Below, piece after piece: positions 2,059 through 13,131 of a DNA stretch of 14,865 bases. The stretch is taken from the IMG/VR virus record IMGVR_UViG_3300022073_000076. One strand, 5' to 3'. The stretch comes from a virus (lineage: Duplodnaviria; Heunggongvirae; Uroviricota; Caudoviricetes). The translations under genes were made by a program, and so were the position numbers. Within the stretch, counting starts at the first letter, position 1; every line of letters starts with the position of its first letter. The notes under the pieces are model-generated. The model searched no databases. It was not told the origin of the DNA and worked only from the letters and a program-made list of their open reading frames with translations.

Positions 2059-2116
2059 AAAAAGGGCGGCAGAGCAGTCACGGAGTAAAACTGATACCGC
2101 CAAACGTCACCAGAAA
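2059..2116 (-). ncRNA. dicF: DicF small RNA (antisense inhibitor of ftsZ translation), processed from the dicB-operon transcript; 3' end is an intrinsic terminator
   Basis: Reverse complement of 2059-2116 reads TTTCTGGTGACGTTTGGCGGTATCAGTTTTACTCCGTGACTGCTCTGCCGCCCTTTTT, which matches DicF as I recall it: GC stem (GGCGG..CCGCC) followed by a U-run. Lies between ydfC and dicB as expected. Confidence 0.8.
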
Positions 2117-6595: not shown

Positions 6596-6847
6596 ATGAT
6601 GAACATCGAAGAACTGCGTAAAATTTTTTGTGAAGATGGCCTCTATGCTGTGTGCGTTGAAAATGGAAATCTTGTTAGTCATTACCGCATTATGTGTTTG
6701 CGAAAGAATGGGGCTGCGTTAATTAATTTTGTGGATGCTCGGGTCACGGACGGATTTATCTTGCGCGAAGGTGAGTTTGTCACTTCATTACAGGCATTGA
6801 AAGAGATCGGAATAAAAGCTGGCTTTTCTGCTTTTTCAGGAGAATAA
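6596..6847 (+). CDS. rem: Rem, 83-aa prophage protein of unknown function
   Basis: ORF 6596..6847 (+): MMNIEELRKIFCEDGLYAVCVENGNLVSHYRIMCLRKNGAALINFVDARVTDGFILREGEFVTSLQALKEIGIKAGFSAFSGE. GGAAGGA Shine-Dalgarno upstream; tandem ATG ATG start. Confidence 0.8.
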   Translation: MMNIEELRKIFCEDGLYAVCVENGNLVSHYRIMCLRKNGAALINFVDARVTDGFILREGEFVTSLQALKEIGIKAGFSAFSGE

Positions 6848-6913
6848 ACTCATCTACAATCTTGCGCGGGGCTGAACTCCCGCTGAGTAACACCGTGCCA
6901 CCGGAGAAAACCG

Positions 6914-7192
6914 ATGGCACGCAACGCAAAATATTACAATTCTGATAATTCGCCCGTTCTTGCCTGCACGCACGGGCGGTATTCTCACGCATTCAAGTCT
7001 GAATGGTTCCAGCACCCTCCATGCACTGCAGAACAGGCCGAATGGCTGATTCATTCTTACCGCAGGCGCGGGTTCGAGGTTAAGAAAGCTCTCAGTCTCG
7101 ACTATCGGCACTGGATAATCTCTGTCAGGCTGCCTTATTCCGAACGCCCACCACGTGCGTCCCGCACTTTCCAGCAACGGATCTGGAGGTAA
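6914..7192 (+). CDS. Hypothetical 92-aa Cys/His-containing ORF immediately upstream of and translationally coupled to ydfU; not a gene I recognise
   Basis: ORF 6914..7192 (+): MARNAKYYNSDNSPVLACTHGRYSHAFKSEWFQHPPCTAEQAEWLIHSYRRRGFEVKKA.. GGAG 7 nt upstream of the ATG. Its TAA stop (7190-7192) sits inside the GGAGGTAACGTG ribosome-binding site/start of ydfU. The C-terminal third is Arg/Pro-rich and less protein-like. Confidence 0.35.
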   Translation: MARNAKYYNSDNSPVLACTHGRYSHAFKSEWFQHPPCTAEQAEWLIHSYRRRGFEVKKALSLDYRHWIISVRLPYSERPPRASRTFQQRIWR

Positions 7193-7193
7193 C

Positions 7194-8243
7194 GTGCGGG
7201 TATTACTTAGACCTGTTCTGGTGCCTGAGCTTGGGCTGGTGGTCCTTAAGCCGGGCCGTGAATCCATACAGATATTTCATAATCCTCGAGTGCTGGTGGA
7301 ACCGGAACCAAAAAGCATGCGTAATCTGCCATCCGGAGTCGTTCCTGCCGTTCGCCAGCCGCTGGCGGAAGACAAAACATTGCTGCCGTTTTTTAGTAAC
7401 GAACGGGTGATTCGTGCTGCTGGCGGCGTTGGCGCATTGTCCGACTGGCTATTACGTCATGTTACATCCTGCCAGTGGCCTAATGGCGATTACCATCACA
7501 CTGAAACAGTCATTCACCGTTATGGTACCGGCGCAATGGTGTTGTGCTGGCACTGCGACAACCAACTGCGTGACCAGACATCGGAATCACTGGAGCTGCT
7601 TGCTCAACAAAATCTGACAGCATGGGTGATTGACGTCATCCGTCACGCAATAAGCGGTACGCAGGAGCGGGAATTATCTTTGGCTGAATTATCCTGGTGG
7701 GCGGTCTGCAATCAGGTGGTGGATGCACTACCTGAGGCTGTATCGCGTCGTTCGCTGGGATTACCAGCGGAAAAAATCTGCTCGGTGTACCGCGAAAGCG
7801 ACATCGTACCGGGAGAGCAGACCGCCACCAGCATATTGAAACAACGCACAAAAAATCTTGCACCGTTGCCTTACGCCCACCAGCAACAAAAATCACCACA
7901 GGAAAAGACGGTGGTAAGCATCACCGTTGATCCAGAGTCTCCGGAATCTTTCATGAAGCTGCCTAAACGTCGCCGCTGGGTTAAGGAGAAATACACACGT
8001 TGGGTTAAGACACAGCCGTGTGCTTGCTGCGGTATGCCAGCCGACGATCCGCATCATCTGATTGGTCACGGGCAGGGCGGAATGGGAACAAAAGCACATG
8101 ATCTCTTTGTGTTGCCTTTGTGCAGAAAGCATCACAACGAGCTGCATACGGATACAGTGGCATTTGAAGATAAGTATGGCTCCCAACTGGAGCTGATATT
8201 TCGTTTTATCGATCGCGCGCTGGCAATTGGCGTACTGGCGTAA
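7194..8243 (+). CDS. ydfU: YdfU, 349-aa DUF968-family prophage protein with a C-terminal HNH/zinc-finger-like motif (nin-region analogue)
   Basis: ORF 7155..8243 (+). Preferred start is the GTG at 7194 (VRVLLRPVLV..), preceded by GGAGG at 7186-7190. C-terminal CACCG..HHLIGHGQGG..CRKHHNELH motif. Confidence 0.8.
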   Translation: MRVLLRPVLVPELGLVVLKPGRESIQIFHNPRVLVEPEPKSMRNLPSGVVPAVRQPLAEDKTLLPFFSNERVIRAAGGVGALSDWLLRHVTSCQWPNGDYHHTETVIHRYGTGAMVLCWHCDNQLRDQTSESLELLAQQNLTAWVIDVIRHAISGTQERELSLAELSWWAVCNQVVDALPEAVSRRSLGLPAEKICSVYRESDIVPGEQTATSILKQRTKNLAPLPYAHQQQKSPQEKTVVSITVDPESPESFMKLPKRRRWVKEKYTRWVKTQPCACCGMPADDPHHLIGHGQGGMGTKAHDLFVLPLCRKHHNELHTDTVAFEDKYGSQLELIFRFIDRALAIGVLA

Positions 8244-9770: not shown

Positions 9771-9800
9771 GTTAATGATTGCGTCGGTTTGAAGAACAGA
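9771..9800 (+). promoter_or_regulatory. Putative cspB promoter -10 element, transcription start and cold-box-like element at the 5' end of a ~160-nt 5' UTR
   Basis: GCGTTAATGATTGCGTCGGTTTGAAGAACAGAC resembles the cspA -10/start/cold-box arrangement as I recall it (GCTTAATGCACATCAACGGTTTGACGTACAGAC). It lies ~160 nt upstream of the cspB ATG. Confidence 0.4.
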
Positions 9801-9943
9801 CGATATACGAAGTAGTTTACTAAAGCAGTTCTCATTTCAGGTGTTATTCACTTATTCCTTCTTTGAGTCTCTCCAATTAAGTACGAAGTCGTTTCTGTTA
9901 TGCAAACCATTTATGCCGAAAGGCTCAAGTTAAGGAATGTAGA

Positions 9944-10159
9944 ATGTCAAATAAAATGACTGGTTTAGTAAAATGGTTTAACGCAGATAAAGGTTTTGGC
10001 TTTATTTCTCCTGTTGATGGTAGTAAAGATGTGTTTGTGCATTTTTCTGCGATTCAGAATGATAATTATCGAACCTTATTTGAAGGTCAAAAGGTTACCT
10101 TCTCTATAGAGAGTGGTGCTAAAGGTCCTGCAGCAGCAAATGTCATCATTACTGATTAA
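9944..10159 (+). CDS. cspB: CspB, 71-aa cold-shock protein
   Basis: ORF 9944..10159 (+): [74 protein letters not shown]1/RNP2 motifs KGFGFI and VFVHF. AAGGAATG-type Shine-Dalgarno. Confidence 0.95.
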
Positions 10160-10440
10160 AATTCATCGCTCGTCTGTATACGATAACGAAGAAGGCTGAT
10201 GCCTGAGTAGAGATACGGACAGAGTAGTGAATATTGGATCTCTTTAATAAAAAGTAAGGAGGTCCAATACATGAAACAATGGCTAGCATATTTGGCAAAA
10301 TCTTAATCAGGAAAAGTATGCTAACCATTGTGGTGAAGTGCAGGTTTGCTGCATGAATAGTTTTACAGCAGAAGCTAACTGCTGGCATGGCAAAACAAAG
10401 TGCGTAAGTGGATGACTCCCACAAAAAGCACCACAATCTC

Positions 10441-12673: not shown

Positions 12674-12700
12674 GTTAATGGTGTTCTGGTTTGTTACAAA
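12674..12700 (+). promoter_or_regulatory. Putative cspI promoter -10/start region, paralogous to the cspB promoter motif
   Basis: CATGCGTTAATGGTGTTCTGGTTTG (12669-12693) shares ATGCGTTAATG..GGTTTG with the cspB upstream region (9768-9789). It lies ~140 nt upstream of the cspI ATG, consistent with a long 5' UTR. Confidence 0.35.
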
Positions 12701-12830
12701 TTTATCTGAAGCAGTCATTGTTATAATTTTATTATTTGTACCTCTTGAGATTTCCTTGTTGGTTTTTCTCTCTGATATTTTTTTTCGGACCATTCTGCCC
12801 AAGGGCTAATTTCTTCAAAAGGTAATAATT

Positions 12831-13043
12831 ATGTCTAACAAAATGACTGGTTTAGTGAAATGGTTTAACCCTGAAAAAGGTTTTGGTTTCATCACGCCGA
12901 AAGATGGCAGCAAAGATGTGTTTGTCCATTTCTCAGCAATTCAGAGCAACGATTTCAAAACATTAACTGAGAATCAGGAAGTTGAATTTGGTATTGAGAA
13001 CGGACCTAAAGGTCCTGCCGCTGTTCATGTAGTGGCGCTTTGA
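12831..13043 (+). CDS. cspI: CspI, 70-aa cold-shock protein
   Basis: ORF 12831..13043 (+): [70 protein letters not shown]. Confidence 0.95.
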
Positions 13044-13131
13044 GGTAGACAATATTACAAACCATATTCACTTTAGATGCCCGTGTTGTCATGGTTCCCA
13101 GTATAGAACATCATCTTTTGATGTTTCTGAC

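Follow-up and report, generated by a model that had tools for sequence, protein, structure and literature searches.

A small conserved phage protein gene between rem and ydfU in the Qin prophage of Escherichia coli

In the Qin cryptic prophage of Escherichia coli K-12, what occupies the interval from rem to ydfU: a gene, a fragment of one, or an untranslated leader? The window considered here, a stretch of 14,865 nucleotides from a Caudoviricetes record, carries this region in the reverse of the MG1655 orientation, with the gene order dicC, ydfX, ydfW, flxA, ydfV, relBE, hokD, rem, the open reading frame (ORF) of interest, ydfU, ydfT (Q antiterminator), cspF and cspB. A 1648-nt query spanning rem to ydfU is 99.9–100% identical to K-12-type genomes. 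A first-pass annotation of the window had pointed to a complete ORF in this interval, and had suggested that it was either a real small protein of the nin region or the frameshifted N-terminus of a longer ancestral gene of the ydfU type. Here, we weigh these and other readings of the locus.

The reading frame, its signals and its annotation

As read from the sequence, the ORF starts with ATG at 6914, stops with TAA at 7190–7192 and encodes 92 amino acids. It carries its own Shine–Dalgarno (SD) sequence and runs directly into ydfU. The relevant features are as follows.

6903–6906, plus strand: SD sequence GGAG of the small gene, 7 nt 5′ of its ATG, read directly.
6914–7192, plus strand: the small gene, 92 codons, the same as RefSeq WP_012304870.1 ('hypothetical protein') and a member of PHROG 1212.
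7185–7196, plus strand: putative coupling junction GGAGG-TAA-C-GTG, made up of the ydfU SD, the small-gene stop, one base and the ydfU start.
7194–8243, plus strand: ydfU, 349 aa, the downstream, putatively coupled gene; residues 160–346 form a DUF968 nuclease domain of the His-Me finger (HNH) type.

The coordinates, the translation and the 7-nt spacing of GGAG are exactly those given by the first-pass annotation. This SD is found in about half of the sampled Escherichia-type loci, the rest having a weaker GCAGAG. At the other end of the gene, the final two sense codons, TGG AGG, supply the GGAGG at 7185–7189 that is the sole SD for the ydfU start; the stop codon and a single base, C7193, then lead into GTG at 7194, the RefSeq start of ydfU. 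The stop therefore sits inside the ydfU ribosome-binding site, just as had been described.

Whether the gene counts as unannotated depends on the record consulted. In the curated MG1655 sequence, NC_000913.3, there is no feature between rem (b1561) and ydfU (b1560), where the ORF corresponds to complement(1644306..1644584). In other genomes the PGAP/RefSeq pipeline calls the identical ORF, under the accession WP_012304870.1 and the name 'hypothetical protein', so that it is unannotated solely in the K-12 reference record; the first-pass description holds for NC_000913.3 and fails for PGAP-annotated genomes and phage records. A 279-nt homologue is annotated in O157:H7, the exact protein sequence is present on at least 1000 contigs under the labels 'hypothetical protein' or 'Prophage protein', and megablast against 5426 complete E. 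coli genomes places a copy, annotated 'hypothetical protein', in 2391 of them, with every match at 80% identity or above. The gene is thus already catalogued, in RefSeq and as part of PHROG 1212, and has been omitted only from the curated MG1655 record.

Coding evidence and the relation to ydfU

An Escherichia-type set of 166 full-length copies was drawn from viral contigs, genomes and phage records, and comprises 69 distinct nucleotide sequences. Protein identity within the 69 versions goes down to about 70%, and database homologues extend this to 63%. The frame from ATG to stop is intact in every one of the 69. Variable alignment columns fall at codon positions 1, 2 and 3 in the ratio 37/45/77, and the pooled Nei–Gojobori (NG86) dN/dS in the ORF frame is 0.21 (codon-bootstrap 95% interval 0.14–0.32). 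The other two sense frames give 1.86 (the ydfU frame) and 1.12, while the antisense frames give 1.27–1.48 in two cases and 0.31 in the mirror frame. The dN/dS comparison proposed at first pass thus sets 0.21 in the ORF frame against 1.1–1.9 elsewhere, the mirror frame excepted. As a side observation, that mirror frame has its third positions in common with the ORF. An antisense ORF of 137 codons (6854–7267) was also considered as a gene; with a dN/dS of 1.48 in its frame, it is a shadow ORF.

Judged by its pattern of substitution, 6914–7192 is a bona fide, selectively maintained protein-coding gene for a small basic phage protein, which bears out the first of the two proposals, that of a real gene in a nin-type region. 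The interval has also been left without a gene in curated MG1655, and it could be viewed as a non-coding leader of ydfU, consisting of a Rho-dependent terminator and hairpins, in which the 92-codon frame arose by chance or is decaying and has been over-called by pipelines. The leader is indeed structured, and the Rho-dependent terminator upstream of ydfU has been reported to rank with the strongest of its kind in E. coli (PMC9160355). A frameshifted copy is present in one strain, L092, as expected from occasional prophage decay. A Rho site can, however, coexist with a coding gene, and a mere leader would not account for purifying selection specific to one frame with all distinct copies intact, nor for a confidently predicted fold and a protein that is conserved across genera, at identities down to 30–48%, in phages with other gene contexts. 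This evolutionary signature makes the non-coding reading very unlikely. Searches for direct expression evidence for the K-12 copy (ribosome profiling, proteomics), including the supplements of PMC12350097 (PIRT-Seq) and a Ribo-RET preprint, returned none.

The second proposal, that the ORF was once the N-terminal part of a longer ydfU-type gene and became detached, took its cue from the ydfU frame, which is open from 7119, as the first pass had observed: TAA at 7116–7118 lies just before it, and the resulting 25 open codons upstream of 7194 are kept in 65 of 69 variants. A related possibility is a +1 frameshift at AGG-TAA-C, which would yield a 442-aa fusion. A +1 slip at the stop gives AAC-GTG, in the ydfU frame, and the GGAGG before the stop loosely recalls prfB. 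The re-pairing of AGG to GGU is poor, and the SD here overlaps the P-site codon, whereas in prfB it lies 3 nt upstream. The ydfU frame 5′ of 7194 carries no coding constraint: its dN/dS is 1.9–2.8, and 2.8 over the last 24 codons. Nor is YdfU missing anything at its N-terminus. It is a DUF968 protein (Pfam PF06147, E 1.4e-76), and its residues 1–349 match positions 1–334 of 334 in PHROG 96, 'HNH endonuclease', over the full length. An alternative ydfU GTG at 7155 is absent in 109 of 157 loci. Among 129 + 325 homologues and 107 representative clusters, there was no protein in which the ORF and DUF968 are fused; in other phages the small gene stands alone beside unrelated genes, and the frame offset to the next gene varies among family members (−4, −10, +1, +2). 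That the ORF is a piece of ydfU, whether detached or joined by frameshifting, is scarcely credible, and the suggestion is set aside.

One further idea concerned YdfU itself. Had its N-terminal 165 residues formed a DUF1367/Orf-like domain, Qin would have held a permuted Orf–small gene–HNH module; a BLASTP E of 24, an hhalign probability of 0.2% and the lack of a Pfam match led to this idea being dropped.

The protein and its family

The small protein can be divided into three parts, with the following coordinates.

6914–6991, plus strand: N-terminal extension, codons 1–26, Escherichia-specific, predicted to be disordered, weakly constrained.
6992–7129, plus strand: beta-alpha-beta-beta core, codons 27–72, recognized from dN/dS (0.11), alignments and AlphaFold.
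7130–7189, plus strand: basic C-terminal tail LPYSERPPRASRTFQQRIWR, codons 73–92, conserved, ending in the TGG AGG that provides the ydfU SD.

The core contains conserved residues W31, F32, H34, C37, T38, Y49, R50, R52, G53, L60, D63 and W67. An AlphaFold model built from a 55-sequence alignment predicts a strand at 29–33, a helix at 39–52 and strands at 55–60 and 67–74, with pLDDT of 90 or more over about residues 31–70 and a lower-confidence helix at 84–90. The tail is the most conserved segment, with dN/dS 0.08 (0.03–0.16) and L73, P74, R81 and W91 invariant. Residues 27–92 hold 13 Arg/Lys and 6 Asp/Glu (a direct count on the translation), which makes the protein strongly basic. The first-pass annotation had suspected that the Arg/Pro-rich C-terminal third was out-of-frame sequence; it has turned out to be the best-conserved part, and PHROG 1212 spans residues 27–92 fully. 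Conversely, the N-terminal region that had looked protein-like is the least conserved, with dN/dS 0.60 (0.34–1.04) in the extension and pLDDT below 50 at residues 1–23. The C-x-H and C motifs seen there are present, as Cys18-x-His20 and Cys37, of which Cys18 and His20 vary among homologues (S, I, H and Q, R, respectively).

The extension is missing from every non-Escherichia homologue, in which the Met of the 66-aa forms aligns with Phe27, and around codon 27 the window offers no other in-frame start. The best explanation for the extension is therefore that the ancestral start was lost and that the nearest ATG on its 5′ side took over. The Met codon of the short forms is replaced in the Escherichia lineage, so that the frame now begins 26 codons upstream and a disordered, weakly constrained leader has been added to the protein.

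The protein belongs to PHROG 1212, residues 27–92 aligning to positions 1–66 of the 66-position profile (E 1.7e-35, 121.9 bits). By tblastn it was found in 59 phage records from at least 10 genera. Within these phage records, the full 92-aa form occurs in Escherichia phages only, whereas the 66-aa form, equivalent to residues 27–92, is found in Gifsy-2, mEp237, SPN3UB, PY54 and N15-like phages, and also in phages of Cronobacter, Citrobacter, Klebsiella, Hafnia, Edwardsiella, Erwinia and Pantoea. Members already named include N15 'Orf QD1', Gifsy-2 STM1021.1n, mEp237 gp051, PY54 ORF47, phiES15 gp17 and Edwardsiella GF-2 ORF72. When 1.84 billion representative proteins were searched with a profile, just 107 clusters matched, mostly of 66 aa; the family is accordingly small and taxonomically narrow. 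By these sequence searches, PHROG 1212 occurs solely in Enterobacterales, in their temperate phages and prophages. Its ancestral form is a basic protein of about 66 aa, with a compact beta-alpha-beta-beta core and a conserved Arg/Pro/Trp C-terminal peptide.

Members share the core, a tail ending in W-(G/R), a tight stop/start junction with the next gene and a position in the early or nin regions of temperate phages. The Qin/Escherichia form differs from the short forms in three respects: it has an extra 24–26 N-terminal residues; it has Rem or HokD upstream, the DUF1367/Orf-like neighbour having been lost; and the gene that follows it is DUF968, where the short forms have NinG or YbcO. N15 Orf QD1 (UniProt O21966) gives the only significant viral structure match in Foldseek (E 4e-4, 29% identity), and the C-terminal motif PSRTYQQKIW is nearly identical in Orf QD1 and its homologues in N15-like/Ravinvirus phage-plasmids. 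Orf QD1 departs from the rest in lying after a Q-like antiterminator and before a 3′–5′ exonuclease, with no lambda-type nin region, in being annotated as longer (142 aa in N15) and in having Met in place of Cys37.

Other affiliations of the protein were examined and found wanting. Searches of Pfam, NCBIfam and PADLOC with the 92-aa protein gave no match, and Pfam searches with the 55 alignment members gave only weak Glyoxalase matches below threshold (best E 0.013, 7 of 55). A sequence profile search of the PDB returned nothing below E 0.14, and apart from the homologue N15 Orf QD1, no significant structural match to the core was found in the fold search. R3H domains, which bind single-stranded nucleic acid through a beta-alpha-beta-beta-alpha fold, resemble the protein in the order of secondary structure and in basic composition and appear in both structure-search lists; the combination of a significant fold match and a conserved R-x3-H motif was not found. 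Zinc binding by Cys and His would require three to four conserved ligands. Of the Cys and His positions, just H34 and C37 come close to invariance, and PY54 and N15-like members have Met in place of C37, so a zinc site is not supported. Finally, QQRIW was considered as a beta-clamp-binding motif, and this was dropped since its Gln positions vary across the family.

Coupling, silencing and possible role

The arrangement of stop, SD and start at the end of the small gene is the classical anatomy of termination–reinitiation coupling. All 166 Escherichia-type copies have retained the architecture TGGAGG-TAA-N-(G/A)TG, in agreement with the coupling anatomy claimed for the junction at first pass. 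The arrangement also extends beyond this gene type: throughout the family the gene ends in TGG-(GGG/AGG)-stop, with the next start 1–2 nt further on, whichever gene follows, and TGG-GGG/AGG-stop-N1-2-ATG precedes NinG, YbcO and RusA in other genera. Ribosomes that finish the small gene would re-initiate on ydfU, and with such re-initiation ydfU translation would depend on translation of the small gene; we infer this dependence from the junction spacing.

At the 5′ end of the gene, the start codon is itself part of a predicted structure.

6895–6920, plus strand: leader hairpin GUGCCA-CCGGAGAAAACCG-AUGGCAC, identified from its predicted fold and the conservation of its stem.

In the hairpin, an upstream hexamer is paired with codon 2 and with two bases of the start codon, U and G, and the SD is partly covered. 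The segment 6845–6920 folds with −25.9 kcal/mol (z −3.84 versus shuffled controls). Every one of the 14 distinct leaders keeps the 6 bp of the outer stem paired, and one stem pair varies between C-G, U-G and U-A; on the 3′ side this is a GCA/GCG exchange, which is synonymous. With one covarying or compensatory pair only, the evidence for the hairpin is no more than suggestive. No Rfam family or intrinsic terminator was found in the interval. In rho mutants ydfU rises and rem does not (PMC9160355), which fits a poorly translated small gene in a silent prophage. In K-12, both genes would be silenced by a hairpin that occludes the AUG together with the Rho-dependent termination that has been reported upstream of ydfU.

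These features raise the question of whether the peptide matters at all. The ORF might be mainly a translated spacer, which shields the transcript from Rho and brings ribosomes to ydfU while its product hardly functions; the conserved junction, the weakly constrained N-terminal extension and the termination reported within the interval are what such a spacer would look like. The low dN/dS of the core and tail given above is unexpected for a mere spacer, as are the confident fold and the residues that stay invariant over 66 positions and across genera, and we consider this account improbable.

What that protein does can be approached through its neighbours. Loci of the long (Escherichia) type have DUF968 ydfU next in 158 of 168 cases, with rem, hokD or other genes upstream. 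Of 99 loci of the short type, 89 follow DUF1367 with a 5-nt gap, and 89 precede YbcO (PF07102, formerly DUF1364) or NinG. DUF1367 is Orf/NinB-like according to an HHpred note in the Eho59 record, and the 66-aa forms lie directly after an Orf/NinB-like gene (DUF1367 or YbcN). The sampled loci are highly redundant, with many near-identical Klebsiella-type and E. coli-type examples, and amount to about 15 independent contexts. Exceptions downstream include a Dcm methylase (Eho59), RusA followed by YdfU (Chris1), a 3′–5′ exonuclease (N15-like phages) and unidentified genes. The proteins encoded by the usual downstream neighbours are nucleases: DUF968 and DUF1364 (YbcO) form one His-Me finger group and NinG another, and a role in phage recombination is thought likely (PMC5714182).

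The position of the small gene, between Orf-like and His-Me nuclease genes in an operon upstream of Q, is like that of the lambda genes ninD, ninE and ninF, which encode small proteins and are flanked by orf/ninB and rap/ninG; in the lambda ninR region Orf and Rap/NinG are encoded in one operon (PMC4118853). The likeness does not extend to sequence, for which similarity is absent: the Pfam families NinF, NinE and NinD do not match the protein (E up to 1) or the 55 members (E up to 5), and phages Eho59 and PA-1 carry the small gene plus a separate NinF.

Its anatomy would place the gene in the early-right operon of the phage, of nin type, a short way 5′ of the Q antiterminator. On the strength of neighbourhood and composition, we tentatively suggest, as the likeliest of the roles considered, that the protein may be an accessory factor of the nin-region module for DNA recombination or processing, whose basic tail would bind nucleic acid or a partner protein. 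The neighbourhood argument is a weak one, of guilt by association and not proof; nin regions conserve gene order anyway, and members that precede a Dcm methylase, an exonuclease or unidentified genes fit an accessory role less well.

The protein might also act on the host, as a small toxin, an anti-defence factor or a binder of a host factor that docks through its C-terminal peptide. A conserved tail of low predicted confidence with an invariant Trp is typical of a docking peptide, modules of the hokD/relBE type adjoin the gene in Qin, and one phage record (ON470583.1) labels a homologue 'toxin to Rem'. Literature for that label was not found, however, and neither PADLOC, Pfam nor NCBIfam gives a toxin or defence match; moreover, Rem or HokD is upstream in the Escherichia type only, DUF1367 taking that place in other genera. 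Action on the host is, on balance, rather unlikely. A more specific version of the accessory role takes the C-terminal P-R-P-S-R-x-aromatic-Q-Q-R/K-hydrophobic-W to be a docking motif that recruits or regulates the adjacent His-Me nuclease or a host factor such as SSB. This is quite doubtful; if true, the recombination module of the lambdoid nin region would possess a small regulatory subunit that had so far escaped recognition.

Taken as a whole, the account preferred here, of a PHROG 1212 phage gene that is apparently coupled to ydfU, is very probably correct, although about half of the Escherichia-type leaders are without a good SD. Its firm part is the existence of the gene; the silencing in K-12 is a proposal, and the accessory role a possibility. 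What it offers in practice is above all a correction for curators: a gene at complement(1644306..1644584) belongs in the MG1655 reference annotation. The finding adds one conserved small protein to the lambdoid nin region, and no new kind of system. For the prophage, it means that the small gene probably gates the translation of ydfU; for the wider family, the usual place of the gene before that of an HNH-type nuclease makes its product a concrete candidate for studies of phage recombination of the Orf/Rap type.

Rem and the leader of the small gene

Window 6596-6847, + strand: rem
Window 6845-6920, + strand: intergenic leader between rem and the small gene, with two hairpins

Rem, encoded immediately upstream of the 92-codon small gene, matches PHROG 340 (unknown function; E 4e-21) and has no Pfam family, and its match to the NCBIfam model of the SocB toxin is only sub-threshold (E 0.01; 14.9 bits versus a cutoff of 210). 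In Escherichia phage vB_EcoS-689R5 (ON470583.1, locus L268, 1801-2079), the homologue of the small gene is labelled 'toxin to Rem'; neither a paper nor a model was found to back this label.

The leader that separates the two genes folds at -25.9 kcal/mol (z -3.84). Its second hairpin (6895-6920) sequesters, in the predicted fold, the AUG of the small gene and part of its Shine-Dalgarno sequence. The 6-bp stem of this hairpin is present in all 14 distinct leaders, among which one pair varies in a compensatory manner (C-G / U-G / U-A).

Competing reading frames and the ydfU start

Window 6854-7267, - strand: antisense ORF of 137 codons, spanning the entire small gene
Window 7155-7193, + strand: in-frame upstream extension of ydfU from an alternative start, GTG 7155

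The antisense ORF was rejected as a gene and is regarded as a shadow ORF, because dN/dS in its own frame is 1.48. Initiation at GTG 7155 would yield a YdfU of 362 aa; this codon is missing in 109 of 157 related loci and no coding constraint is seen in the ydfU frame across 7155-7193, which together support the annotated start, GTG 7194.

Other RNA elements and further copies

Window 2064-2115, - strand: DicF sRNA
Window 9783-10175, + strand: cspA-type thermoregulator leader
Window 12685-13070, + strand: cspA-type thermoregulator leader

All three are Rfam matches; DicF is expected in Qin, and one of the two cspA-type leaders sits upstream of cspB.

In E. coli ECMA0423 (CP178302.1, locus L092, 3001-3271), frameshifts break the copy of the small gene into three frames, a pseudogenisation in a single strain. 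An E. coli-type copy (91% identical) lies on a 22.9-kb contig binned as Veillonella (JAGZPX010000007.1, labelled a Veillonella parvula MAG), probably a mis-binned Escherichia prophage contig. The Salmonella enterica protein P0123 (96 aa), a variant of the 66-aa short form, carries an internal tandem duplication of ~30 residues (HHHDCTTEQADTLISDYQKRG... repeated).

The junction with the following gene

Window 7185-7196, + strand: stop/start junction of the small gene and ydfU, with equivalents in loci L003, L004, L006, L095, L097, L098, L262, L266 and L267

Throughout the family, here and in these nine loci, the final codons of the small gene are TGG-(GGG/AGG) followed by the stop, and the following gene starts 1-2 nt beyond it, whether its product is NinG, YbcO, RusA or YdfU. 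The TGG-(GGG/AGG)-stop sequence serves family-wide as a putative ribosome-binding site for whichever gene comes next.
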